Shown here: positions 1 through 60,632 of the stretch, piece by piece
Numbering within the stretch: the stretch's first letter is position 1
Layout of the letters: each line of letters begins with the position of its first letter
From: Methanotrichaceae archaeon
GTDB lineage: Archaea > Halobacteriota > Methanosarcinia > Methanotrichales > Methanotrichaceae
DNA: 64,000 nt
NCBI GenBank assembly: GCA_963748825.1
Contig: CAVVKN010000025.1
Coordinates: forward strand, 28,802-92,801
Reading direction: 5' to 3'
Position numbers and translations under genes: made by a program
The notes under the pieces: generated by a model
The model's input: only the letters and a program-made list of their open reading frames with translations
Database searches by the model: none
Told to the model about the DNA's origin: nothing

Positions 1-473
1 ATTTCCACGGTATGCTTTTTAGAACTATTTGTTTGTTTATATGTCATAGTATCTCCAAATTATTGTTTTATCAATTGATATTACTATAATTTTTATCTTA
101 TGACATCAATATTAGCACCAATCCCACTTTCCACCAGTTCTTGATTTAGCACGATGTAATAGCATAACGACCATTTTCAGAGCACATTCAACCTCAACGT
201 GTATTTCTATAAGCCCATACCATTCCAATACAGTATCCTGAAGATATTTCAAACCTCTCATTTTCAATATCATTTATATCGACTGGTCATAAATTGCTCA
301 GAGTGCTAAAGTGCGCATTTGAACCATACTCGAAGTGCTCGCTTGTGATATTGTGATCTATTGTGATCCGATGGATGGACAGAAACGCGGATCACATTCT
401 GGTAGCTCATTCCGCCGAGCAACTCAGAAGGCTGCATGCTCCTGTACTGCAGGCACTCGAATAGATGTGCATG

Positions 474-605
474 CTAGGCCCGATTGGCGAGCGACCGCAA
501 CCCCAGACAGCCCAGCCCACAGGCGGCAGGCACGAGCGCAGCCGGGAGCCGGGCAAAGTGAGTCATCTAACGAGCGTGAGCCGGGTGCCGGGAAAAGTGA
601 GTCTA
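474..605 (+). repeat. Inter-cassette GC-rich repeat copy R1 (modules A-B-C, with C tandemly duplicated)
   Basis: CTAGGCCCGATTGG...GCAACCCCAGACAGCCCAGCCC...GGCACGAGCGCAGCCGGGAGCCGGGCAA matches copies at 1308, 2118, 4181 and 5756; module C is repeated at 533-564 and 571-603. Confidence 0.85.
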
Positions 606-650
606 TCTGCAAATCCCTGGAAGATTGACCGGATTTCTGGGAAGATGGGA

Positions 651-685
651 AGCGAAAGGCTATAATCTTATCACTGCTGATAACC
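651..685 (+). promoter_or_regulatory. Promoter and putative autoregulatory operator of hicBA-1
   Basis: AGCGAAAGGC-TATAAT (BRE/TATA-like) about 25 bp before the ATG; palindrome TTATCA-CTGC-TGATAA at 668-683; similar AGCGAAAGGC-TTTATC...GATAA before the second hicB (4642-4672). Confidence 0.55.
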
Positions 686-949
686 ATGTTAATGTTTGGA
701 GAATACATCTTGGCGGCTATGGAAAGGGCCACCTACGAAATCATCGATGACCCTAAGCCCTATTATGGCGAGGTTCCCGAACTGCAGGGTGTTTGGTCAA
801 CAGGTAAAACTCTTGAAGAATGTCGTAAGGAACTACAGAGCGTAATCGAGGGCTGGATTGCTTTAAAGCTGAGACTGGGTCATCCTATACCTGCAATAGG
901 CGGATATGTTATTAATGCGTCTGCGGAGCCTGTCTCCATTGTCGAATAA
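686..949 (+). CDS. hicB: HicB-family antitoxin
   Basis: YYGEVPELQGVWSTGKTLEECRKELQSVIEGWI, a HicB RNase H-like fold motif. Confidence 0.9.
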   Translation: MLMFGEYILAAMERATYEIIDDPKPYYGEVPELQGVWSTGKTLEECRKELQSVIEGWIALKLRLGHPIPAIGGYVINASAEPVSIVE

Positions 950-1163
950 ACTTTTGCCGGTTTCAAGACGTGAGCTGATTAAGCGATTGAGTAAATTGGG
1001 TTTTGTCGGTCCTTATCCCGGAGCAGATCATGAGTATATGTCCAGAGGACTGGTAGAGGCGCGCATTCCCAATCCTCATGGCAGCAATATCAGTGTGGAT
1101 CTATTGCAGAGAATTCTGAAGCGAGCTGGAATCAGTCGCGAAGAATGGTTTGATGTAGCATAA
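939..1163 (+). CDS. hicA: HicA-family toxin (TTG start overlapping the hicB stop)
   Basis: PVSRRELIKRLSKLGF..G.DHEYM...IPNPHGSNISVDLLQRILKRAGISREEW. Confidence 0.9.
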   Translation: MSNKLLPVSRRELIKRLSKLGFVGPYPGADHEYMSRGLVEARIPNPHGSNISVDLLQRILKRAGISREEWFDVA

Positions 1164-1425
1164 TTCTTTGTGCCTTCGTATCTTTGCGGTTAGTCGTAGC
1201 TGTTATGTTATAATTGTGCACTAATATTAATAACGAACCGAAGGCATTGCTTTCCTAATCCTACGCTCAGAAAAACCGCATCATTCGGAGTCCAGCTCAT
1301 CCTGGCTCTCAGGCCCGACCAGCCTACCGCCCCTGAGTATGGAGCGTTTGTCGGGCAATCCAGCCCACCCTGACAACCACGCAGCAACCCCGGACGGCCC
1401 GGCCCAAAGGCCACGAGCCACGGAT
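1164..1425 (+). repeat. Repeat copy R2 (E-F-A-B-C)
   Basis: Begins right after the hicA stop; contains the palindromic core 1203-1232, CTCAGGCCCGACC at 1308 and AATCCAGCCC..GCAGCAACCCCGGACGGCCCGGCCC at 1357-1405. Confidence 0.85.
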
Positions 1426-1512
1426 GAACTGCTCAGATCGGATACAAACACCTCTTGCACCAAAAGGGGCAACGTTTTTAGGGATGTAACACCTCTATTC
1501 TATGGGTTGAAT

Positions 1513-1794
1513 ATGGATATCCTCGACATTATCAAAAGCCACGCCAATGATATCAAGATCCTTTTTAGCGTCAGGCGAATCGGTATCTTCGGATCCTTCG
1601 CCCGTGGTGAGCAGAAGGATTCCAGCGATGTTGATATACTGGTGGAATTTGAGAAGCCCACATTTAAAAACTTCATGAACCTTTCATTCTACCTGGAAGA
1701 TCTCTTGGAAAGAGAGGTGGATCTGGTCACCGTAAAAGGACTTCACCCGCGCATCCGGCCTTACGTGGAGAAGGATGTGATCTGGTCTGAATAA
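1513..1794 (+). CDS. Minimal nucleotidyltransferase antitoxin (MntA-like)
   Basis: IGIFGSFARGEQKDSSDVDILVEF nucleotidyltransferase motif. Confidence 0.9.
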   Translation: MDILDIIKSHANDIKILFSVRRIGIFGSFARGEQKDSSDVDILVEFEKPTFKNFMNLSFYLEDLLEREVDLVTVKGLHPRIRPYVEKDVIWSE

Positions 1795-2116
1795 AGACGT
1801 AGAGCTACTGGGACACATCCTTGAAGAGATGGATTTCATTGCAAAGTATTGTGCTGTCGTTGGCATAGAGACGTTGATGGCAGATGAAGTTCTCCGCAGA
1901 GCCTGCGTGAAATCCTTGGAGATCATTGGAGAGGCATCCAGGAATATCTCAGATGATTTGAAAACGGCGCACCCAGAGATTCCATGGAGACAGATGATCG
2001 GCATGAGAAACAAGCTGGTTCACCATTACTTTGGAGTGGACTGGGAGATCGTGAATGATGCCCTTAAAAATGAGCTTCCAGAGATAAAATTAAAACTGGC
2101 GAAAATATTAATATAA
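1787..2116 (+). CDS. HepT-like HEPN (DUF86) RNase toxin; probable CTG start at 1787
   Basis: LEIIGEASRNI..HPEIPWRQMIGMRNKLVHHYFGVD (Rx4H motif); the frame extends upstream of ATG 1829 as NKDVELLGHILEE. Confidence 0.88.
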   Translation: MNKDVELLGHILEEMDFIAKYCAVVGIETLMADEVLRRACVKSLEIIGEASRNISDDLKTAHPEIPWRQMIGMRNKLVHHYFGVDWEIVNDALKNELPEIKLKLAKILI

Positions 2117-2117
2117 A

Positions 2118-2670
2118 CTCTCAGGCCCGACCGGCCTCCTGCCCGCCCTGACGACAACGCAGCAACCCCGAACGGCCCGGACCACATGCGTCGGCCACGA
2201 GCGCAGCCGGGAGCCGGGCAAGGGAGCCACGTTCGAGCGGCTACCGGGCGCTGCTGCCCACAGCCCCGCAAGGATGACGATGCTGGAGACAACCTTGAAG
2301 TCTGCCAAAACGTCTCTGTGCGCTTCTCGCACCTCTGCGTTTTTCTTCTCGTAACCTCATATTTTACTTCTCCCGCTACGATTATTAACCGCAGAGCCGC
2401 AGAGTTCGCAGAGCCTCGCAATCTACTTATTTGTCTACACTTGAAAAAAAAGTGTACTGTGTCTGAGCAATAGTCGTCTCCGTCCGTTCGTCCTCCGCGT
2501 GCTCTGCGCCTCTGCGGTTCGATCCGTAGCTGCTAGGTTATAATTTTCATCTAATGATAATAGGAAACGGCGATCGTTTCCCAAAATCCAGCCCGCTCTG
2601 ACAACAGCGCAGCAACCCCGGACGGCCCGGCCCGAGGACAGCAGGCACGAGCGCAGCCCGAGGCGAGAGG
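2118..2670 (+). repeat. Repeat copy R3 (longest: A-B-C-D-E-inverted core-E'-E-F-B-C)
   Basis: Starts 1 bp after the toxin stop; contains an inverted pair AACCGCAGAGCCGCAGAGTTCGCAGAG (2387-2413) / CTCCGCGTGCTCTGCGCCTCTGCGGTT (2493-2519); cores at 2344-2373 (-) and 2533-2562 (+). Confidence 0.9.
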
Positions 2671-2724
2671 CAGACGGGCGAGCTGCAGAAAAATCTTATA
2701 TACTTTTAGGATAAACATTATCTT

Positions 2725-2949
2725 ATGTCAACTTCTGTTTATAGCGTTCGCATTGAAGATCGTATACGCCGGATGATGGATGAGATGTCTGATGTCAATT
2801 GGCAGGGAGAGATCAAGCAAACCGTGGAGAGAATGGTTCGGGAAAAGAAGAAAGAAAGGCTCCTGGCCGAGGCTCAGGAACTGTGGAAGCATCAAGAGCC
2901 CAATGCAATCGGTGCTGCGGAGATGATACGGGAGGATCGAGATGCTTGA
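2725..2949 (+). CDS. vapB: VapB-like antitoxin (ribbon-helix-helix-like N-terminus)
   Basis: MSTSVYSVRI...NWQGEIKQ...AAEMIREDRDA; overlaps the PIN gene. Confidence 0.75.
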   Translation: MSTSVYSVRIEDRIRRMMDEMSDVNWQGEIKQTVERMVREKKKERLLAEAQELWKHQEPNAIGAAEMIREDRDA

Positions 2950-3352
2950 TAAGGTAGCTTTGGATTCAAATATCCTGGCATCTATGTTTTTCAAAGAGGA
3001 TGCCTCTCAAAGAGCTCTGGATGCAGTCACCAAACCGGATTTGATCACTCTGGACCTGGCAGTGATTGAGGTTGGAAACGTTGCCTGGAAACAGGTGACT
3101 CTATTCGGGAAGGACAGGGATCTAACTCTCAATGCTCTGCAGAAATGCCAGACATTTATCTCCGAGGCGTGCGATGTCGTCAGAGCGCAGGATATGATGG
3201 CGAAGGCATATGATATCTCGATTGTTACTACAGCGTCCTTTTATGATTCCCTCTTTTTAGCCCTGGCAGAAAAAGAGCAAGTCCCTCTATTGACTTTGGA
3301 TAAGAAACTGTACAATAAAGCTAATTCTTCATTTAATGTGCAATTGATTTAG
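2942..3352 (+). CDS. vapC: VapC PIN-domain toxin
   Basis: VALDSNIL...IEVGNVAWK...FYDSLFLALAEKEQVPLLTLDKKL. Confidence 0.92.
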   Translation: MLDKVALDSNILASMFFKEDASQRALDAVTKPDLITLDLAVIEVGNVAWKQVTLFGKDRDLTLNALQKCQTFISEACDVVRAQDMMAKAYDISIVTTASFYDSLFLALAEKEQVPLLTLDKKLYNKANSSFNVQLI

Positions 3353-3402
3353 CGTGCATGATTGAGATGTCGTGAAGTTATTGGAATCTAATGTGGCCTC
3401 AC

Positions 3403-3455
3403 CTGGCTCCTCAGGCCCGACCGGCCTCCTGTCCCGAGCGCAAGCGAGAGTGCAG
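3403..3455 (+). repeat. Repeat copy R4 (short, mainly module A)
   Basis: CTGGCTCCTCAGGCCCGACCGGCCTCCTGTCCCGAGCGCA. Confidence 0.8.
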
Positions 3456-3571
3456 TTCATGCCCGAATGAAATTGTATTTGATTTCTCTACTCAATGGAG
3501 AATTGCTCATCAAGACCCAAAGGTTAAATGCCTTAAACAGTATTTTAGATTCATAAAACAGGTGCATTTTA

Positions 3572-3796
3572 ATGAGCGGCGGGGTGCATTCATTGAGCTT
3601 TCAGGATCTAATCGAAGCTGTAGAGTCCATGCCTCTGGAAGATCAGTCCATGCTGGTCGAGCTGATCAACAAACGCATCATAGAGAAACGCCGGGCCGAG
3701 CTGGTAGCTGAAGTCCAGGATGCTAGGAGTGCGTTCAAAAGAGGCGAGGTTAAACGGGGCACATTTGAAGACCTGATGAAGGATCTGTTAGATTGA
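3572..3796 (+). CDS. Putative antitoxin of the RelE/YafQ pair
   Basis: Small helical protein FQDLIEAVESMPLEDQ...GEVKRGTFEDLMKDL, overlapping the toxin by 4 bp. Confidence 0.75.
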   Translation: MSGGVHSLSFQDLIEAVESMPLEDQSMLVELINKRIIEKRRAELVAEVQDARSAFKRGEVKRGTFEDLMKDLLD

Positions 3797-4077
3797 ATAC
3801 TCTTGTCTGGAGCCCTGGCTTCAAAAGATCCTTCAAGCACTCAATACGACGCAGGCCTGATCTGCAAGAGAAAATTGAACATGCACTGAAACTGCTCGCT
3901 ACTGATCCACAACACATCTCTCTTCATACTCATAAATTGAAAGGGGACTTGGCAGGTTCTTGGGCTTGTACGGTCGACTTCGAATATCGCATAGTATTTG
4001 AGTTCGTGCGAGATCCAAAGACTCAAGAAGAGATCATCCTGCTTGAAGCAGTGGGCACGCATGATGAAGTCTACTAG
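3793..4077 (+). CDS. RelE/YafQ-family mRNA interferase toxin
   Basis: WSPGFKRSFK...LHTHKLKGDLAGSWACTVDFEYRIVFEF...VGTHDEVY. Confidence 0.9.
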   Translation: MNTLVWSPGFKRSFKHSIRRRPDLQEKIEHALKLLATDPQHISLHTHKLKGDLAGSWACTVDFEYRIVFEFVRDPKTQEEIILLEAVGTHDEVY

Positions 4078-4180
4078 TTTCAAGCCCTCAAATGTATTAG
4101 CTAATAGTAACTGAAAATCGCCACCATTTTAGAATTCAGCCCTTGAAAAGCTGCTTTACTTTATCCCATCTCGATGTGAC

Positions 4181-4592
4181 TTCAGGGCCGACTGGCCTCC
4201 CGCTCTCCCGAGCACGAGTGCGTACGTACGGTCCACCTGTCGGACGATGCCGCCCCCCAGACGGCGCGGCCCACGGGCGACGGCCCCGAGCGCAGCCGGA
4301 AGCCGGGCAAGTCAGTCACGGTCGAGCGGCAGCCGGGCGCTGCTGCCCACAGTCCCGCATGGATAGAAAGGCTGGAGACTGCCAGGAATTCTTTTCAAAA
4401 GTCTCTGTGCGTCCTCTGTGCGCTCTGTGTCTCTGTGGTGGGATCGTTGGTTGTTCTGGTATAATTTTCTGCTTATGATAATAGCAAACTGCCATCGTCT
4501 CTAAAATCCAGCCCACGAGCACGCGCGTGCGGACAGGTCAGCCTGGCGGAAGGCAACGCAGCCCCGCAAGGCCCGGCCACGGACGGCGGACA
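4181..4592 (+). repeat. Repeat copy R5 (A-B-C-D-E-F-B)
   Basis: Shares CGAGCGG..CCGGGCGCTGCTGCCCACAG.CCCGCA.GGAT...GCTGGAGAC with R3; core at 4454-4483. Confidence 0.88.
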
Positions 4593-4676
4593 TTTTAGCG
4601 AAACTTAGGTGTAAGACAAGAGCAGCTTCAAAGGCTAATAAGAGCGAAAGGCTTTATCTGATCAGGGATAACAATT

Positions 4677-4940
4677 ATGCTGATGTTTGCGGAGTACATT
4701 AAAGCGGCAATGGATAAAGCGACCTACGAGATAATCGACGATCCTGAGCCCTTTTATGGTGAGATTCCTGAGATTCAGGGCGTATGGGCGTCAGGAAAGA
4801 CGCTTGAGGCTTGTCGGGACGACCTTATGAGTGCTCTCGAAGATTGGATAGCGTTCCGCCTTAGGACAGGAAGATCTATTCCCTCGATCGGTGGAACTTC
4901 AATTTCCGTCTCATCGGAGCCGATTAGCGTTGTCGAATAA
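4677..4940 (+). CDS. hicB: HicB-family antitoxin (diverged paralogue of 686-949)
   Basis: MLMFAEYIKAAMDKATYEIIDDPEPFYGEIPEIQGVWASGKTLEAC. Confidence 0.9.
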   Translation: MLMFAEYIKAAMDKATYEIIDDPEPFYGEIPEIQGVWASGKTLEACRDDLMSALEDWIAFRLRTGRSIPSIGGTSISVSSEPISVVE

Positions 4941-5085
4941 ACTTACTCCCGTTTCCCGACGTGAGCTTGTAAGACGATTGAGGAAATTAGGATTTGATGG
5001 CCCTTATCCAGGATCTAAACATGAGATCATGGCCAAAGGAGACATATCTATCTATCAAGCTCTGCGGTCTCCCAGACTTGTTTGA
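4930..5085 (+). pseudogene. hicA: 3'-truncated HicA toxin
   Basis: LSNKLTPVSRRELVRRLRKLGFDGPYPGSKHEIMAKGDISI, then runs into antisense HepT sequence at about 5052; lacks the IPNPH..ILK C-terminus. Confidence 0.8.
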
Positions 5086-5337
5086 TGTCAATTCCAAAGT
5101 ACTGATGCACGAGAATGTTCCTTAAGCCTACAATGTCGGCCCAAGGAATATCCTGATTGCATTCCGTCAAATCATCTGACAGGTGATTCGAAGCTTCGCC
5201 AATCACCTGAAGATGATGAATTATCCAGACTTGCGTTCGTTCGTCTTCGGCATAGGCCTGATAGCCAATAGAACATACTTCCCAATCTTTTCTATGGCCT
5301 CGTTAATATCACGCAGCCGCTCCTTGTCATCCCTCAA
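5049..5337 (-). pseudogene. Frameshifted, 3'-truncated HepT/DUF86 toxin
   Basis: MRDDKERLRDINEAIEKIGKY / frameshift / IIHHLQVIGEASNHLSDD..IPWADIVGLRNILVHQYFGIDIKQVWETAELD. Confidence 0.85.
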
Positions 5338-5625
5338 AGGGGCACCGCCTCGCTCAGGACTCTGTCTCGAATTCGCTCTCGCAGGCCACGGTCACTAACT
5401 ACATCGACCTTGATTTTCAGTAGGGATTCAAGCTCTCGGATCATGGCGGAATGGCTAAGCAAAGTTGCGCCTGGAATAAACTCTACCAGGATATCGAGAT
5501 CGCTCTTTGAGTCTGCCTCTCCTCTGAGCAACTGAGCCAAAGATCCTGACATTGCGAGCGCCATGCTTTGCAGCAATCTTTAGAATCTCCTCTCGCTTTT
5601 CATTCCGGAGATCTTCAATACGCAT
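5334..5625 (-). pseudogene. Frameshifted MNT antitoxin
   Basis: [33 protein letters not shown] / extra base near 5527 / [16 protein letters not shown]. Confidence 0.82.
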
Positions 5626-5732
5626 AAATTATTATCTGCCGTTCAAGAAGATCAAAGCTTCGATCCAGATGGTTGCGTTGCATAGCGGCGACATCTCTTT
5701 CCAAAGAATCCCGACACCAGGAAAGACCCTTA

Positions 5733-5879
5733 TCAGGCCCCAGCTCTACCTGAACCTCAGGCCCGACCGGGCCTCTGCCCCCGATTGCTAGCGCTTGCCA
5801 AGTAATCCAGCCCGCCCTGACGAAAACGCAGCCCAGGCTGGGCCCCACGGGCGGCAGGCCACGAGCGCAGCCCGAGGCG
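5733..5879 (+). repeat. Repeat copy R6 (A-B-C)
   Basis: CTCAGGCCCGACCGGGCCTC...AATCCAGCCCGCCCTGACGAAAACGCAGC...GGCCACGAGCGCAGCCCGAGGCG. Confidence 0.85.
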
Positions 5880-6019
5880 TGCGATGTCGTCAGAGCGCAG
5901 GATATGATGGCAAAGGCATATGATATCTCGATTGTTATCTTCATTTAATGGGCAATTGATTTAGCATGCATGATTGAGATGTCGTGAAGTTATTGGAATC
6001 TAATGTGGCCTCACATGGC
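5872..6019 (+). pseudogene. Doubly deleted near-identical relic of the vapC cassette
   Basis: 5872-5937 matches 3162-3227 and 5938-6019 matches 3326-3407, with few mismatches. Confidence 0.92.
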
Positions 6020-6196
6020 ACATATAACTAATATTATATAAACACTAGGATATAATGTGCCCTGCCACCATCACTAACTAATGCGATTGTGCCATTGATT
6101 GTTGATATCCTGTATATTTTCTTTACTAAACTCCGTTTTGTGCGGTCATTTTATCTATCATGAAAAGAATATTGTTCTCAATGAGCGTGTAACGAC

Positions 6197-6595
6197 ATGA
6201 CTGAAACAATCGTAGAATCAATATTTGGCGTGAATGCTGGTGCCGTATGGCGAGCACTTAATCAAAATGGTCCAAGCAACATTGGCGATCTTGTGAAAAC
6301 TACATCCATGAGCCGTGAAGAAGTCTATGGTGCTCTTGGGTGGCTTGGTCGCGAGAACAAGATCGCCATAGAGAAGCGCGGACGGGCAATTGTATTCTCA
6401 TTACGAGAGTCAGAAGGACGTTCGGAAGCATCTAAGGGCAAAACAATAGGAGATTCTGTGCTACAAGAGCAAACAACGCATCATACAAGAGTTCTGCCAA
6501 AGAAGACCACAAAAGCAAAAAAGACTGCAGAAGCTCGCAAGGTCAAAGCCCCGCTCAAACAAAGCGAAAGGAGCGATGAATTTCTACTTCATTAG
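6197..6595 (+). CDS. Winged-helix protein (DUF2582-like) with basic C-terminal tail
   Basis: FGVNAGAVWRALNQNG...ALGWLGRENKI. Confidence 0.8.
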   Translation: MTETIVESIFGVNAGAVWRALNQNGPSNIGDLVKTTSMSREEVYGALGWLGRENKIAIEKRGRAIVFSLRESEGRSEASKGKTIGDSVLQEQTTHHTRVLPKKTTKAKKTAEARKVKAPLKQSERSDEFLLH

Positions 6596-6787
6596 TTGTT
6601 ATACTTGCTACAATTAGGGTGAAAGCTGCGGGCAAACAGGAGACAGAGCGCATGGTGACTTCCAATTTCGCCAGGCAAAATATCGAAATGTTTCACAATG
6701 CAGTCTCGATTGCATAGCAGGAAGAAGAATAAGGTTCAATCTGAAACATGGAGGCGTATGTATAGTAAAATTAGCAATTTTGCCCGC

Positions 6788-6991
6788 ATGAAATATGTCC
6801 TCATCGCCATTCTTCTGTTCCTCATTGGGTTGGTCCTGATGCTGACATTCTTCCTGATGATTACAGTACCTTTTGCTCTAGCAGCTTGGGCCTGGGGAGG
6901 GATATTCCTTTACCTAGCCGCAATGAGAAGACCTTACAGCGACTTTGCTGCAACATTAAGATGGCATAAATCACGCAAAAAATATGTGTAA
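6788..6991 (+). CDS. Small membrane protein
   Basis: Two hydrophobic segments. Confidence 0.5.
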   Translation: MKYVLIAILLFLIGLVLMLTFFLMITVPFALAAWAWGGIFLYLAAMRRPYSDFAATLRWHKSRKKYV

Positions 6992-7032
6992 TATTTTTCA
7001 TTTAATTATTTGCTACTTTGGCATCTATAGCC

Positions 7033-7431
7033 TTAATCTGGTGGACTGTCTTTGAAGCACTCTATTTCGATGGTCACGTTCTTGATATGCTCTTTTAACA
7101 CATTAATGCGACTTTCCAATAGGCGTTTCAAATTCTCTGGCATGATAGAATCATAATCTATCGGTGCAACATATCCCATCTCGCCATACAAGAGCGGGAT
7201 CTCACCGGGTAGTGATGGTTCATTCCTATCAACTATGGAAAAATCACCCATAGATGAGAACAAACCAACTGGTTTATTTTTATCTTTATCGGGCTTTGAA
7301 ACTTGAACTTTTCCTTTGATCAATAATTCATTAGTCGCTTGCTCTGTTGTCATTTTTTTGCCATCTATATAGACCCACTCGCCTTGGGGGCTTCCATAGT
7401 AGACTTTCATATCCATTTCTAAACTCTCCAC
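7033..7431 (-). CDS. Hypothetical protein (AT-rich)
   Basis: 132-aa ORF, no recognised motif. Confidence 0.5.
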   Translation of the reverse strand: MESLEMDMKVYYGSPQGEWVYIDGKKMTTEQATNELLIKGKVQVSKPDKDKNKPVGLFSSMGDFSIVDRNEPSLPGEIPLLYGEMGYVAPIDYDSIMPENLKRLLESRINVLKEHIKNVTIEIECFKDSPPD

Positions 7432-7669
7432 TAATTATCAATAGCAGTCTAATGCTAAATATCTTTCCTCAAAAATGTTCCAATCTAAAGTTCATTGCAG
7501 TGTGTCATATCTTGTGGCAGATATTGGGGATAACTACCGCACTACCCGTATGAGGAGGTAAATCGCAATGATCAACCGCATTACTTGGGCAGGCAGTCAT
7601 AGTTTCAACTAGCTGCTGATTACATGTTTGGGGAAAAATCGCAGGAAAGAAAAAAGAAGATATTATGAT

Positions 7670-8362
7670 CTAAATGTAGACCGCTGTTCCCGGCTCCACG
7701 TAGATTATCTTCTGGACTCCTTTCTGGAAAAACATCGTCTTCGGGTAGTTGAATTGACCGTCGTAGACCCGGATATCGTGGTTCCGGTTGCCGACGACAC
7801 GCAGGCTGAACCTTCCATCAAGCAGATCTCCTCCCGTTCCCTCAGTGCCGATGTAATTGCCATCTAGGAATATCTGATACCCTCGCATGCCTTGAGATAC
7901 TATTGTAACTGGTGTATCTCCCGTGGCTACAACTTGTGGCTGAGTAGTTGTATATACGGGAGCAGGAGATTGGATCGCCGAACTTGGTGTGCTCGATATT
8001 GGATACACCCTAAACGATGATTTTGTTTGTGCATAATCCATCGTTTCAGACCAGTTCTTTTGGAATGGGTCCCAATTCATACCAGCTAGAGAATTCAGTC
8101 TGAAGTCCGAATAATAAGGCTGTGGAATATAGGGATATACGCCATATGGTCCTGGATATTTGACCCCACCCGAAGTGTACCAAGGGAAGTATTGAATAGG
8201 AGTATCGAGCCAACGAACCATGCCAGCGATCCCGGGATCTATCCCCGAACGGTCGAAACTTCTAACATATCCTCCTTCCAGCCACTCTTGCCCACATGCT
8301 GTAGCGATTAGCAAGCATACGGTGAAGGCTGTTATACATAGCAATTTAATTCTGGACATCAT
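7670..8362 (-). CDS. Secreted hypothetical protein with PEGA-like beta C-terminal domain
   Basis: Signal peptide, S/T/P linker, GYQIFLDGNYIGTEG. Confidence 0.7.
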   Translation of the reverse strand: MMSRIKLLCITAFTVCLLIATACGQEWLEGGYVRSFDRSGIDPGIAGMVRWLDTPIQYFPWYTSGGVKYPGPYGVYPYIPQPYYSDFRLNSLAGMNWDPFQKNWSETMDYAQTKSSFRVYPISSTPSSAIQSPAPVYTTTQPQVVATGDTPVTIVSQGMRGYQIFLDGNYIGTEGTGGDLLDGRFSLRVVGNRNHDIRVYDGQFNYPKTMFFQKGVQKIIYVEPGTAVYI

Positions 8363-9518: not shown

Positions 9519-9697
9519 AAAAGATGCAGCCAATCTCATGCAGTAGTAGTATTTAACAGTATTCGTAAGGACCGCCGGGCATCCGCCGAGGAGTCTTTCG
9601 CTCCATCGGTCTGCAGCCTGGTCTTTTCAGCTTCCTCGCGGTCTCGAATGGCCGGGTTTGAAGTCTGCTCACCATAAATCAATGTCTTTTAGCAGTA

Positions 9698-9752
9698 CTC
9701 TGTGCGCTCTGCGACTCTGCGTTTTTATTATCAACCACTAATTATTAGCAGC
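9698..9752. repeat. Solo degenerate copy of the E motif plus inverted core remnant
   Basis: CTCTGTGCGCTCTGCGACTCTGCGTTTTTATTATCAACCACTAATTATTAGCAGC resembles 2313-2380 and the reverse complement of 2528-2562. Confidence 0.6.
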
Positions 9753-9909
9753 CATGCGCGGCTCCTGGCTCCTGGACGCGGCAGGCAACATCGTTGCCGA
9801 GCCAGAGAAATTGAACAAAGAAAAGCTAGCCAGGAGACCAAAGGCTTCCTGGGCCAGCTAATTGCATATTATTGCAGGATAATGAAAATGACGTCTTTCG
9901 CCCAATCGC

Positions 9910-10812
9910 TCAGCTTTTGACTGCCAGCATCCTCTCAATCGACCGGCGCGCCCTCACCGCAATCTCCTCCGGCACCGTGACCTGCGGTTGCAGGGTCTGC
10001 AGCGCTCGCAAGACATTGACCAGATCGGTCTTCTTCATATTCTGGCAGATGGCATTCTTGCTCAGTGGATAAAACTCCTTCTCAGGATTCTCCTTCTTCA
10101 GCCGATAGATCATGCCCGCCTCCGTGCCGATTATAAACTCCCTGGCAGCGCTGGCTTTAGCATGTTTGCCCATTCCGGCTGTGCTGTAGGTGAAATCGGC
10201 CTGATCGATGACCTCTGGCCGGCACTCCGGGTGCACCAGCACCTCCGCATTTGGATGCTCCGCCCGGGCGGCCCTCACCTCTTCTGCTGTGAGGTTATCG
10301 TGAACATAGCAGTAGCCGTTCCAGGGAATGATCTTCTTCTCGGTATGGCGGGCCACGTAGGCGGCCAGATTCCTGTCCGGGACAAAGATGACCTCCTTCT
10401 CGGACAGTGAGTTTACCACTTGCACACCATTGGCGGAAGTGCAACAAACATCGCTCTCCGCTTTTATCTCAGCCGTGGAGTTTACGTAGCAAACGACGGC
10501 AGCTTCCGGATGGAGGTTTTTGAGATCGCAAAGCTGTTCGGGCGTGATCATGTGGGCCATAGGACACCAGGCACCCTTCACAGGCAAAATGACCTTTTTT
10601 TGCGGGGAGAGAATGGCCGCGGTCTCAGCCATGAAGTCCACTCCACAAAAGATAATGACCTCCGAATCCAGGCGGGCTGCTGCGCGGGAGAGCTCCAGGG
10701 AATCGCCCACCAGGTCGGCTACATCCTGCACTTCGGGCATCTGGTAGTTATGGGCCAGAATGGTCGCCTGGCGTTCCTCTTTTAAAGCGAGAATATCTTT
10801 TGTCATAGTCAT
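9910..10812 (-). CDS. nadA: Quinolinate synthase
   Basis: ILAHNYQ..GDSLELS..FCGVDFMAETA..CPMA..VHPEC..C.NMKK. Confidence 0.96.
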   Translation of the reverse strand: MTMTKDILALKEERQATILAHNYQMPEVQDVADLVGDSLELSRAAARLDSEVIIFCGVDFMAETAAILSPQKKVILPVKGAWCPMAHMITPEQLCDLKNLHPEAAVVCYVNSTAEIKAESDVCCTSANGVQVVNSLSEKEVIFVPDRNLAAYVARHTEKKIIPWNGYCYVHDNLTAEEVRAARAEHPNAEVLVHPECRPEVIDQADFTYSTAGMGKHAKASAAREFIIGTEAGMIYRLKKENPEKEFYPLSKNAICQNMKKTDLVNVLRALQTLQPQVTVPEEIAVRARRSIERMLAVKS

Positions 10813-10929
10813 AGAATTGGCACAATTGTCTGAGAAACTATTATTTCAACCTTTTTAAATAGGTAAGCTTAATAGTATTATCTTAATTAAAGCAAAATTG
10901 ATTTAGATGTTGATTGGATGAGCCCACAC

Positions 10930-11214
10930 TCATCCACCGATGGCCGCGGGAAAAAGGGCCACTTCACTCCCTTCGACCAGGAAAGTCTGCAAACCTCGCA
11001 GGTTGGAGATGTTCTTGCCCGCCACAAAAACATTTACGTCCTCCCGCAAATCCTCGCCGCTAAATAACAGTGGGCGAAGGGCAGGACGAGAGGCACAGAG
11101 TGCTTCCAATAGGTCCAATACAGTCATATCCCTTGCTTCTTCTCCCAGCTCGACCTGCATTTCCTTTCCTAGAACATGGCGAAAGCCGGCAAAAGAGATG
11201 ACTTTAACTTTCAT
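10930..11214 (-). CDS. MoaD/ThiS-family ubiquitin-like sulfur carrier (SAMP-like)
   Basis: MKVKVISFAGFR...EVALFPAAIGG with C-terminal GG. Confidence 0.9.
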   Translation of the reverse strand: MKVKVISFAGFRHVLGKEMQVELGEEARDMTVLDLLEALCASRPALRPLLFSGEDLREDVNVFVAGKNISNLRGLQTFLVEGSEVALFPAAIGG

Positions 11215-11866
11215 CTGCCATTCTCCGAACTTGCTCCAGGGCCTGCAATGCATCCTCCATCTTGAAGTCCCGCTTCTCCCTGGCCAAGAATTCGCGAAAA
11301 CGCTGCAACTCTTTTTCCGCCACCATTGCTCCTGCATCCGAAAGCATGCGCTCATAGGTCCTTTCTGGAAAGTATCGGGCCTCTGCGCAATGAAAGAGCC
11401 GATCTTTGCAGGAAGCGCTAATTACACCCATCTGCCAGGCTAAATCCAAATTGAAGCGAATGTTCACCAGCGGCTCGGACCTGGGCTCCCAGGAGAAAGG
11501 ATCAAAGATGAGAGCCACTTCGTCATCCGAGACCAGATGGCCACTCTTGTAAGCCTGGTAAATTTTGCCTATGCCCTCCATGCCGTAAATGTCCAGCTCC
11601 GCGGCACGCAAGGCTCCCATGCTGGAGGCGCCCAAGACCTTTGCCCCCGTCTCCAAGGCATAGATTACCTCCTTATGAGCCACGGAGCATTCCTGAAAGA
11701 AGACGCCATCGATGAGCAGAATGATCCCTGCTCCCTCCTTGGCTGCCAGATAGATGTCTCCTCTCTTAGCGGGAGGCCGGAAGTCTGCCTCTAAAATCTG
11801 CTGCGCCCTAGCTCTGGAGAGGCTTGGCCCTAGGAAGACGACTATTCCTGGCATTTCTGCGGGCAT
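11204..11866 (-). CDS. tfuA: TfuA (McrA glycine thioamidation partner)
   Basis: VVFLGPSL..PPAKRGDI..IDGVFFQ..HKEV..GASSMGALRAAEL..DDEVAL. Confidence 0.93.
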   Translation of the reverse strand: MPAEMPGIVVFLGPSLSRARAQQILEADFRPPAKRGDIYLAAKEGAGIILLIDGVFFQECSVAHKEVIYALETGAKVLGASSMGALRAAELDIYGMEGIGKIYQAYKSGHLVSDDEVALIFDPFSWEPRSEPLVNIRFNLDLAWQMGVISASCKDRLFHCAEARYFPERTYERMLSDAGAMVAEKELQRFREFLAREKRDFKMEDALQALEQVRRMADES

Positions 11867-13031
11867 CTTTGCACCTTTTTCCCACCCTTTCCGGATCCAC
11901 GGCCGCGATCTCAAGTCCTGGCACAATCACCCTGACCACAGGAATGCCTATCTCCTCGCGAGACAGGTCAACTACCACTACGCGATCGAGGCCAGCCTCT
12001 TCCAGCTTCTTTAGCATATATCTTATGTCCAGCAGGAAGTCATCGCTCTCAAAGGACGCAATATCAGCAAAGCTCTTCGTGTCGGTTGCTTCAAACCAGT
12101 GCTTGTTAAGCCTCTTGGTCCTGTCGTAGCCGATCTGCTTCCTAAAATCGGCAAGTACTGTATCCTCTCTCGCCCCGTGGATCTGGGTGAGGCGGCTTTG
12201 CGCCACCTCAGTGAGGGCGCGAAGCACTGCCACGCCGGCACTGGTGTGTGTGCCCATGCCCGTGGTGAGAAGGGTTGGATCGCGCAGCCGCACATCATCG
12301 GCCGCGGCCGCGCAGGTTGGAACGCCAATGTCGCTGGTGATATCTCTAAGATAGACATCCACCTCGGCTGCCGCGAATTTATCGAGGAGTCCTTTTGCCG
12401 GGTCGTCCTCCACATCACTGATTATGGGGCAGACTTTGCGCGTCGCCTCCACCAGGGCCCAGGCATCTCTTTCTATAACCTCGGCCAGGCCGTGGAATAT
12501 TGCCTCTTCAATCACATTGCCCGAGGCCAAACCACTGGTATTGGTGCGAAAGAGGCGTTTATAATCGGATGGCAGGGGATGAAAAACCGCATTTGCCGGA
12601 ATTAAAATCTCCTCATCGTTCATTATGTCCCAGCCTGTAGTCCAGGGTATCATAGCATCCGGCTCCGCACCCGCGGGCAAGATCAACTCGCTTGGGTCCA
12701 GCGCCCCGTCTAAATGGGAGAAGCAGTCGATTTTGAGCTCTCTGTCTCGCACCTCAGCCGAGTAGCGCTCCAGGCCCTCCATCATGGCCGATACTTTGGC
12801 CTCGGTGGGTGTAGCTCCTTTTCCGTTGTAGACGGAAATGGCACCTCGATCGGCCATGGGCCGGATGGAAGAGAAGACGGGGATACCGATTCGGTCCAGG
12901 TTGGTTATGTCCGCCACTCTGGTGATCCCAGCGGCGGGCAATTTGGCCTCGGCGCGCTTTAGCGTCTCCTCTGGTGGCAGAGCCCGGTGGGTATCGTCTT
13001 TGTATTTTTTTATGCAGGACGCTAGTCTCAT
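11808..13031 (-). CDS. ycaO: YcaO McrA glycine thioamidation enzyme
   Basis: GITRVADITNLDRIGIPV..YNGKGAT..MEGLERYS..GLASGN..EVIERDA..PVVRVIVPGLE. Confidence 0.95.
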   Translation of the reverse strand: MRLASCIKKYKDDTHRALPPEETLKRAEAKLPAAGITRVADITNLDRIGIPVFSSIRPMADRGAISVYNGKGATPTEAKVSAMMEGLERYSAEVRDRELKIDCFSHLDGALDPSELILPAGAEPDAMIPWTTGWDIMNDEEILIPANAVFHPLPSDYKRLFRTNTSGLASGNVIEEAIFHGLAEVIERDAWALVEATRKVCPIISDVEDDPAKGLLDKFAAAEVDVYLRDITSDIGVPTCAAAADDVRLRDPTLLTTGMGTHTSAGVAVLRALTEVAQSRLTQIHGAREDTVLADFRKQIGYDRTKRLNKHWFEATDTKSFADIASFESDDFLLDIRYMLKKLEEAGLDRVVVVDLSREEIGIPVVRVIVPGLEIAAVDPERVGKRCKDARRNARNSRLPRAKPLQS

Positions 13032-13070
13032 TGCCTGGGCTAAGGGCAGCGATGGAATATAAACTCTGCT

Positions 13071-13487
13071 TCAAAGGAAGGGCAATTTGTCCTTCTTTCG
13101 GTAAGCCAGGGCCTGGCAGGTCGCGATCAATCGCCCGTCTTCGCCGGTTACAGAAATCTGGCAGGCTGAGATCTTTCGAGAGCGATTGACCTCGCGCCCT
13201 TCGGCCTGCAACATCTCTCCGACAAGAGGTGCGCTGAGGTAATTCATATTCACGCCCAAGGCCACAGCTACGGTGCCGTGCGAGTTGACGGTCAGCTCGA
13301 AGGCGGCATCCACCAGCGAATAGATGGCGCCGCCATGGGTCATGCCAAAGAGGTTGTTCATATTCTCAGTAGTACTCATCTTGAGAAGAGCGCGGCCCGC
13401 CTCAAGTTCTACAATCCTGATGCCGAAAATCTTGGCATAAGGCTCCTCTTCAAAGTTCTTCTCTAAAGCTGCCAGACATTGGTCCAA
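13071..13487 (-). CDS. PaaI-family hotdog thioesterase
   Basis: NLFGMTHGGAIYSLVDAAF. Confidence 0.9.
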   Translation of the reverse strand: MDQCLAALEKNFEEEPYAKIFGIRIVELEAGRALLKMSTTENMNNLFGMTHGGAIYSLVDAAFELTVNSHGTVAVALGVNMNYLSAPLVGEMLQAEGREVNRSRKISACQISVTGEDGRLIATCQALAYRKKDKLPFL

Positions 13488-13554
13488 AGCATCATTCCTC
13501 TCCTGGGATTATTCACGAAACGGTTATATCTGCTCCGCTCGATCTAGTAGCTAC

Positions 13555-60439: not shown

Positions 60440-60632
60440 TCAAGATGTCCTCTATGTCTGCCTGCTTTAATATACTTTTCAGGGTCTTGGGATGCAAGTC
60501 CATATCGAGCTTGCCTGCAATTGTCACACGGCCACTTTTAAATGGATGCTTGAACTGTCTGTGGCTACCTCTGATACTCACAAGACGCCATCCATCGGCC
60601 TCGATTAGCTTGATTACATCTCTCACTCTCAT
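60432..60632 (-). CDS. hicA: HicA toxin
   Basis: IEADGW..RGSHRQFKHP..GRVTI..TLKSILKQA. Confidence 0.92.
   Translation of the reverse strand: MRVRDVIKLIEADGWRLVSIRGSHRQFKHPFKSGRVTIAGKLDMDLHPKTLKSILKQADIEDILNG

Follow-up and report, generated by a model that had tools for sequence, protein, structure and literature searches.

Positions 474 to 6,019 of the 64,000-nucleotide (nt) stretch analysed here (the window, G000:C25:28802-92801; contig CAVVKN010000025.1 of the Methanotrichaceae assembly GCA_963748825.1) hold an array of small toxin-antitoxin (TA) gene pairs, or cassettes, between which lie copies of a single GC-rich, non-coding repeat of modular build, all on the same strand. Our analysis confirmed that the observed array is real and that it extends genus-wide, and gave no indication of integron- or pdif-like machinery. 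The repeat is specific to Methanothrix, and arrays of this type recur in other members of the genus. Cassette divergence, set against that of adjacent core genes, is clear evidence of transfer of individual cassettes from species to species without those next to them. We give about an even chance to the proposal that the repeats constitute portable homology for general recombination, with no dedicated site, and that addiction keeps only TA cassettes between them.

The 5.5 kb of the array carries four intact TA pairs, two damaged pairs and one vapC relic, the two-gene cassettes spanning 686-5625:

686-949 and 906-1163, + strand: cassette 1, hicB1 (Pfam UPF0150, 1e-32) and hicA1 (HicA_toxin, 1.7e-7).
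1513-1794 and 1829-2116, + strand: cassette 2, MNT (NTP_transf_2, 2.9e-15) and HepT (HepT-like, 2.2e-26).
2725-2949 and 2942-3352, + strand: cassette 3, vapB-like gene (without Pfam match) and vapC (PIN, 8.7e-10).
3572-3796 and 3793-4077, + strand: cassette 4, antitoxin candidate (without Pfam match) and RelE/YafQ/ParE-like toxin (YafQ_toxin, 1.5e-7; ParE_toxin, 7.4e-5).
4677-4940 and ~4939-5052, + strand: cassette 5, hicB2 (UPF0150, 1.9e-31) and a 3'-truncated hicA2 (without Pfam match).
5053-5625, - strand: cassette 6, inverted and degraded to frame-broken fragments, with HepT pieces at 5048-5330 (Pfam, 5048-5206, 3.7e-14) and MNT pieces at 5334-5625 (Pfam, 5334-5576, 8.3e-7).
5872-6019, + strand: vapC relic at the right end of the array, a recent copy of 3162-3227 (98%) and 3326-3407 (96%).

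By toxin family (HicA/HicB, HepT/MNT, PIN, YafQ/ParE) and adjacent partner, the cassettes are probably type II TA modules; the presumed antitoxins at 2725-2949 and 3572-3796 gave no Pfam match and are so labelled by position alone. A first-pass annotation of the window had listed six TA pairs of four families and a vapC relic. The relic and four of the pairs stand, and the other two pairs proved to be degraded. Cassette 5 aligns with a longer copy in locus L020 at 93.6% DNA identity up to 5052. What appears to be a TATA-like box can be read ~25-35 nt upstream of the start codon of each cassette.

Eight short modules recur between the cassettes in a constant, cyclic order, A-B1-B2-C-D1-D2-X-P, one turn of which measures ~350-380 nt; which modules are present varies. 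Start-to-start distances are 48 nt from X to P, ~96 nt from P to A, 16 or ~49 nt from A to B1, 21 nt from B1 to B2, ~39 nt from B2 to C, ~41 nt from C to D1, 30 nt from D1 to D2 and ~56 nt from D2 to X. Fuzzy matching of the eight modules over 13 loci returned 183 matches, compared with none in shuffled sequence. The copies are modular mosaics of 100-260 nt, ragged at their ends, often truncated and ~70-80% alike. An nhmmer profile of 11 copies, its seed alignment taken from GC-rich spacer parts of the window locus and of a locus on contig C18, gave six strong matches in the window, all on the + strand, and two weak ones:

462-565, + strand: W1, strong match; degenerate A, B2 and C (E 9.5e-17).
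1164-1428, + strand: spacer 1, an X/P-like piece at 1164-1232 (1195-1232 repeated), then W2.
1301-1428, + strand: W2, strong match; A, A2, B1, B2 and partial C (E 1.7e-26).
2114-2291, + strand: W3, strong match at 2114-2247; A 2120-2139, B, C 2196-2215, D1 2237-2258 and D2 to ~2291 (E 4.9e-30).
2313-2528, no strand assigned: copy of a MITE-like (miniature inverted-repeat transposable) element of ~215 nt in spacer 2, with X(+), X(-), X(+).
2539-2673, + strand: P at 2539-2561, then W4, strong match at 2576-2673; B1, B2 and a C variant (E 8.4e-19).
3409-3448, + strand: W5, weak match; only A (exact, 3410-3429) and part of A2 (E 0.064).
4176-4592, + strand: spacer 4, comprising W6, X 4412-4439, P 4460-4482 and W7 (weak match at 4539-4592; B1' and B2'; E 12).
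Starting at 4176, + strand: W6, strong match at 4176-4335; A, A2, B', C, D1 and D2 (E 6.6e-27).
5749-5881, + strand: W8, strong match; A, A2, B1, B2' and a C variant (E 1e-25).

With two matches each, spacers 2 and 4 both hold two sets of modules. Two toxin genes end directly against spacer sequence: HepT, whose stop codon is 2114-2116, against module A, and hicA1, with its stop at 1161-1163, against the X/P-like piece. Module spacings differ by non-multiples of 3, and none of eight open reading frames (ORFs) that cross the repeat matched a Pfam family significantly (a single match at E 0.02, of chance level, fell below the cut-off); the repeat is therefore taken as non-coding, and the same ORFs led us to reject its origin as a decayed coding sequence. 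Tandem Repeats Finder detected nothing in two rich arrays. It is blind to the cycle because the copies are interrupted and so diverged, and the cycle is thus defined by module order and spacing only. Spacer 0 also contains a 39-nt tandem duplication at 540-603 (25-nt cores 540-564 and 579-603, 92% alike), and metagenome contigs have this spacer without it (joint 569>610).

Much of the earlier description of these spacers holds, namely a non-coding modular mosaic that keeps a single orientation despite an inverted cassette and abuts toxin stop codons at two points. Copies had been placed at 474, 1164, 2118, 3403, 4181 and 5733; the family is upheld, with the copy at 3403 reduced to module A. 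The idea that all of this is one repeat applies to A-D and P, which are array-specific, and fails for X, which is part of a genome-wide element.

The source genome, G000, is a 2.88-Mb draft in 25 contigs, in which the profile found 14 copies at E <= 0.01 and two weak ones with filters off. All 16 lie at four TA loci (the window array, C18:58.8-62.6 kb, C10:200.2 kb and C21:62-63 kb), each holding HicAB-, VapBC- or similar small gene pairs, and everything else scored E >= 6.5. Inside and outside these loci, respectively, B2 has 5 and 0 matches, D2 3 and 0, P 9 and 1, and D1 4 and 1; the short matches to A, B1 and C outside arrays (5-10 each) fall in coding DNA near chance expectation, and an A-like core is not enriched elsewhere in the genome. 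The repeat marks arrays and not TA genes generally, since 29 of the 36 HicA, HepT and PIN matches lie away from it (HicA 3/17, HepT 2/6 and PIN 2/13 are repeat-linked, 7/36 together). One HicA-family gene within the window (60453-60623, - strand, 70.8 bits), far from the array and without a repeat copy, likewise indicates that TA genes here do not generally carry the repeat.

Module X has 48 matches in the genome, seven inside the four TA loci and 41 outside. Its sequence is rich in CTCTG(C/T)G, and outside arrays it often forms inverted pairs ~120 nt apart; a further match in the window lies at 9696-9723. From the 41 outside matches, the 34 BLAST matches of 2313-2528 over many contigs and the raised depth of that segment in metagenome contigs (318 versus ~10 alongside, about 30-fold), we place X in a MITE-like element that is dispersed through the genome and distinct from the array repeat. 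Spacer 2 holds this element in full, with an inverted repeat (2387-2413/2493-2519) whose arms are 85% complementary, and one end of the element became part of the array unit. No transposase matching the X-bearing element was identified. A MITE origin was rejected for the A-D repeat, with 16 of 16 copies confined to the four loci and no terminal inverted repeats.

Beyond the source genome, BLAST places the repeat family in 17 of 24 other genomes of the genus and in 0 of 16 genomes of other genera in the class. An exact 25-mer taken from B2 and queried against 185,579 species genomes retrieved 16 stretches, all in Methanothrix or Methanotrichaceae-type records (one labelled only Methanosarcinales), and it was also found in 44 metagenome stretches, 43 of which hold arrays with 176 copies. 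Searches for an extrachromosomal form of the repeat were negative: exact A and B2 motifs had no matches in viral contigs, and spacer 2 had none in plasmid and phage collections. Copies in the retrieved loci form arrays with a spacing of 0.2-1.9 kb, and where a copy stands alone, it mostly adjoins HicAB, PIN, MNT or RHH genes (11 loci inspected). Of the 24 genome loci with two or more copies, 23 have all their repeats in one direction (the exception, L019, resembles two arrays), and so do 34/34 such metagenome loci. The 150 non-redundant intra-array ORFs, called greedily with spurious frames included, match 23 Pfam families, among which Acylphosphatase, HTH_29 and HTH_32 are the only ones that are neither of TA type nor the nucleotidyltransferase or PIN folds of such genes.

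Two kinds of cargo deserve mention in their own right. The only non-TA cargo seen to recur is a protein that joins an acylphosphatase domain to a long C-terminal extension; it lies between repeats in three genomes (L004 5457-6098, L019 9005-9667, L027 4343-4930). The C18 array (L002 9005-9834) has a two-gene cassette encoding 96 and 173 amino acids (aa) between repeats, without Pfam match, which may be a TA or defence pair of a kind not yet described.

An array next to the ilv genes occupies the same site in G000, in three relatives, two of which have compact assemblies (G020, a single contig; G012, 6 contigs), and in contig L082. Read along this site, the cassettes are as follows:

G000: hicBA1, MNT-HepT1, vapBC, relBE, hicBA2, inverted HepT-MNT, vapC relic.
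G020: relB, hicBA1, MNT-HepT1, vapBC.
G006: relBE, DUF3368-PIN/UPF0175 (inverted), inverted HepT-MNT, hicBA2, vapBC.
G012: hicBA1, DUF4258 (inverted), inverted HepT-MNT, vapBC.
L082: MNT-HepT1 twice, hicBA2, a further pair, vapBC.

Wherever a cassette type is seen, its orientation relative to the repeats is constant. The array on C18 and one in genome G008 similarly have a common flank, a long tRNA-synthetase-like ORF. Repeat-free genome G021 has no array after ilvC, and it is not a clean empty site, since the region is rearranged next to an insertion sequence (IS) fragment. Genome G005, also without the repeat, has 17 HicA matches and local duplications; two neighbouring hicA genes on G005:C1 each lie beside a copy of a 67-nt repeat distinct from that of the arrays (copies at L058 13620-13686 and 14411-14477, 75% alike), and may be an independent case of repeat-flanked TA duplication.

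Exchange of cassettes was assessed at 4-fold degenerate sites by Fisher test, with the neighbouring ilvB, ilvN and ilvC as the neutral baseline. Sites alike between G000 and each relative were:

G020: ilvBNC 335/497 (67%); vapBC 83/85 (p 6e-11).
G006: ilvBNC 345/505 (68%); vapBC 78/83 (p 1e-7); hicB2 36/38; relBE 35/61.
G012: ilvBNC 395/508 (78%); vapBC 76/82 (p 1e-3); hicBA1 60/74.
L082: ilvBNC 164/215 (76%); vapBC 77/85 (p 6e-3); MNT-HepT1 63/64.

Several cassettes far exceed the baseline. Identity of relBE and hicBA1 is at the core-gene level and not elevated, and that of the degraded HepT-MNT pair is 93.5-95.8% over all sites. Cassettes thus differ in their divergence relative to the core, so that neighbours in one array have different histories. 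Compared with G020, divergence is 14% upstream of vapB and drops to 4.4% within that gene and to 1.2% in vapC, which places at least one tract end inside the genes.

Ends of homology blocks are enriched in repeats, which make up 5.2% of the sequence: 42 of 130 left ends and 16 of 119 right ends fall there, those on the left scattered over the unit. The 55 gene-sized gaps are bounded on their left by B2 (12), A (10), B1 (8), P (8), C (6), D1 (6), D2 (4) and X (1), with a similar spread of right bounds. Both junctions specific to G000 are microhomology joins of 6-8 bp: hicA2 meets the HepT flank at CATATC (5052/5053, from the junction alignment), and module C meets the vapC interior, in the relic at 5872-6019, at the common 8-mer CCGAGGCG. 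Spacer 2 of G000 is longer than that of G020 by 440 nt, or one unit bounded by B modules, and this unit-length indel (2144>2585) is seen in G020 and in metagenome contigs. Together with it, the metagenome joins 2185>4605, 2221>3500, 2633>5053, 3431>5792 and 5729>2122 all lie inside repeats. Joints that run backwards, such as 5729>2122, were considered as circles and rejected, as they match the arrangement in another species, G006.

Two expectations of the first-pass annotation were borne out by these comparisons. Cassettes have been shuffled, in that their order at the ilv site varies from one species or population to another and single cassettes have passed from species to species; and a profile scan placed 16/16 copies at TA loci. 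For the A-D part, the repeat is neither scattered nor a known MITE or decayed coding sequence, and cassette order is not fixed.

The anatomy and distribution of the repeat, the variable cassette order, the transfer of single cassettes and the junctions at microhomologies or inside repeats are direct observations; we infer homologous recombination as the engine of this variation and addiction as the filter. The repeats would carry no dedicated recombination site and would serve as portable stretches of homology; cassettes would be duplicated, lost, reordered and replaced through general recombination between these stretches and now and then through a microhomology join, and DNA of other Methanothrix species would recombine in through the repeats. 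Direct repeats would also delete the DNA between them, leaving only inserts whose loss is penalised, which could account for the almost pure TA content. The proposal is favoured by the specificity of the repeat for TA loci, its direct orientation, its non-coding and unstructured nature, the spread of junctions over the unit, the unit-length indel between B modules, the use of microhomology, the differences in cassette order, the transfer of single cassettes, the nearly pure TA content and the lack of a recurring recombinase beside the arrays.

Several points weigh against it. Along the array, cassettes are 93-100% identical and spacers only 54-89%, which makes the spacers poor substrates for homologous recombination; the repeats themselves are ~75-85% alike, and the low-divergence tracts fit closely to genes. 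Among the 16 right block ends in repeats, seven lie just after module A, as do window positions 1338, 3437 and 5768-5780, and crossover may be favoured there. Many copies share nearly invariant short cores in A and B2, in a sample biased by the motif search through which the copies were found; this hints at a bound factor. No excision products, circles or within-strain rearrangements were seen, and the alternative metagenome joins may come from other species and not from strain variants. Several of the genomes compared are metagenome bins, in which assembly collapse of shared cassettes is possible. Finally, the proposal is silent on how unrelated TA families first came between the repeats.

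A site-specific cassette system, in which a recombinase encoded in trans or missing from the draft recognizes A/B2-like cores and excises and inserts TA cassettes, seems rather unlikely to us. It would fit the single repeat orientation of nearly all arrays, the constant orientation of cassette types, the right ends clustered after A, the near-invariant cores and the conserved chromosomal sites of the arrays, but recombination between direct repeats accounts for the orientations just as well. Gaps, moreover, are bounded by all eight modules, left ends are spread, and the junctions observed use microhomology. The spacers offer no hairpin or inverted core: RYYYAAC..GTTRRRY core pairs number 0 in the six spacers (shuffle mean 0.3), in agreement with the earlier failure to see attC-type ends, and DNA folds of five window copies on both strands (z -1.95 to +1.92) stay within the range of shuffles. 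Nor was a recombinase found at or near the arrays examined. Nothing recombinase-like lies within 15 kb left of the window array, where a tyrosine recombinase or Y1 transposase had been thought a possible neighbour, and G000 has two partial PF00589 matches (on C20 and C5, none on array contigs), no detectable resolvase, one broken Y1 transposase gene and eight TnpB genes away from arrays. Elsewhere no recombinase family recurs beside arrays; the neighbours are instead heterogeneous (IS200, IS605 OrfB, IS110, IS21, IS4) and differ by place, with Y1 or OrfB genes next to three of the arrays examined and different IS families next to others. The 51 large ORFs flanking metagenome arrays, among the families listed (25/45), are housekeeping genes plus single IS21 and IS110 genes, with no recombinase.

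Three known types of element fit poorly, on similar grounds. An integron or cluster of attC sites lacking an integrase (CALIN) finds no attC cores, no hairpin and no integrase adjoining the array; pdif-type Xer modules are contradicted by the one orientation per array and by the lack of a recurrent short palindromic site among the inverted repeats of the window; and a palindrome-associated element derived from IS200/IS605 is contradicted by the lack of hairpins and by the broken state of the sole Y1 gene in G000. The integron- or pdif-like platform of the first-pass annotation is accordingly not supported, there being no attC, fold, linked recombinase or fixed junction, and junctions that arise by microhomology. 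It is doubtful that a trans-acting factor binds the A/B2 cores and drives directional excision and capture of TA cassettes, with crossover preferred just after A. Such a system, if real, would be a methanogen's counterpart of the integron, with neither integrase nor hairpin, and would carry cassettes from one species to another.

Less probable is that the TA cassettes are themselves mobile, the repeat being a gene-free, recombinogenic landing pad, tolerated or preferred, in a defence island where insertions would do no harm. The tight fit of low-divergence tracts to gene pairs with much more diverged flanks speaks for this, as do the positions of cassettes at many points of the unit, the TATA-like box that each cassette appears to own, the accumulation of five IS families (IS200 Y1, IS605 OrfB, IS110, IS21 and IS4-type DDE) in or beside arrays, and the SIR2_2-domain proteins that flank two arrays. 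Cassette borders, however, show no ends, target duplications or common terminal motifs; the 29 of 36 TA matches away from the repeat imply that TA genes do not need it; and both the single repeat orientation and the fixed cassette orientation are left unexplained. The arrays seem to act as sinks for mobile DNA, with IS genes at L020 6991-7455, L017 16434-17408, L018 7687-8460, L027 8164-9471 and L019 12045-14249 and 16270-17694. The SIR2_2-domain proteins border the C18 array of G000 (L002 10886-12412, 508 aa) and an array of G020 (L024 10543-11715, 390 aa), which suggests that arrays lie in defence islands.

We consider it improbable that the repeat has a function of its own, with the AT-rich module P as promoter of a GC-rich non-coding RNA (A-B-C-D), or as an insulator or terminator between TA operons, so that the array layout is a by-product of selection for that function. 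Module P is conserved and array-specific (9 in, 1 out), at 48 nt from X and ~96 nt from A, and by eye it looks like the TATA-like box of hicB1. Two RNA libraries have contigs over several TA genes and over 2167-2294, the latter in one contig that may be DNA carry-over or another copy; these are not used as support because contigs cannot show transcription, strand or ends. Against such a function, RNAalifold gave no consensus structure on either strand of 60 near-full copies, and an Rfam scan of 1-8000 found one chance-level snoRNA match and no family for the repeat. In orthologous comparison, modules (86.2% identity) are barely above linkers (82.9%), and both lie below TA coding sequence (95.5%) and even pseudogene (94.7%). 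Many units, furthermore, are truncated or mosaic. The resemblance of one X copy to a tRNA was dismissed, as it is not conserved and ARAGORN finds no tRNA in the array.

An assembly artefact or chance resemblance, which a metagenome-derived draft in 25 contigs might invite and which is compatible with public data (contigs of four runs do not bridge 5052/5053, which proves nothing, and no public run contains half of the stretch), is highly improbable given the same kind of array in single-contig G020, in 6-contig G012 and in 43 of 44 independent metagenome stretches, and the 183 module matches against none in shuffles.

No description of the repeat, or of TA arrays in Methanothrix, was found by full-text literature searches. 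Parts of the arrangement recall known systems. The pdif sites of Acinetobacter are short, paired Xer-binding sites of alternating orientation on plasmids, and they bound modules, often TA pairs, in varied combinations. The Methanothrix arrays likewise combine small, often TA modules between repeated sites; their repeats are long, all direct and chromosomal, with no dif-like palindrome seen. Bacterial interspersed mosaic elements (BIMEs) and repetitive extragenic palindromes (REP) of E. coli, and the Neisseria intergenic mosaic elements (NIMEs) with dRS3, occur genome-wide in hundreds of copies built around palindromic units. 'Minimal mobile elements' are exchanged by flanking homology, and mosaic intergenic repeats have been proposed as substrates for homologous exchange of the genes that they enclose. 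Like BIMEs and NIMEs, our repeat is a non-coding intergenic mosaic of short common modules, here eight in cyclic order; unlike them, it has 16 copies at four TA loci, no palindromic unit and a range of one archaeal genus. TA loci are also reported to stabilize repeat arrays that are prone to deletion. The logic that addictive modules resist loss from direct-repeat arrays would be common to both cases, but there TA protects other cargo, whereas the Methanothrix arrays are practically TA only.

Sedentary chromosomal integrons and CALINs, including those of archaea, are also close in layout: small cassettes lie between members of one repeat family that all point the same way, TA cassettes occur with promoters of their own and are sometimes inverted, content varies between relatives, and an adjacent integrase may be lacking. 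They differ from the present arrays, which have no attC architecture or cores, ragged mosaics of 100-260 nt as repeats and no fixed junction point. Integron cassettes of archaea, as far as the main text of the relevant paper goes, encode TA systems in 10.5% of annotated cases (Ghaly et al. 2022, PMC9668308), in contrast to the almost exclusive TA content here. That main text does not name Methanothrix, and its supplementary tables could list Methanothrix bins.

How chromosomal TA pairs move without obvious mobile-element machinery is an old open question, for which these arrays are a tractable natural case, with one recognizable repeat, conserved sites and an environmentally dominant, acetate-using methanogen. 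Should general recombination be the engine, the arrays show how direct repeats and addiction, with nothing more, can imitate an integron; a dedicated factor, if there is one, would represent a new archaeal recombination system. Either way, the repeat is a marker for variable defence and TA regions in Methanothrix genomes and metagenomes.

One further observation concerns the ilv site itself. A 4-kb segment of G000 (G000:C25:23551-27533; L001 ~9550-13530), encoding two large, secreted-looking proteins of 362 and 839 aa, separates ilvC from the conserved post-ilvC segment; five relatives lack it at this place. It is flanked on each side by ~150 bp of the ilvC 3' region.

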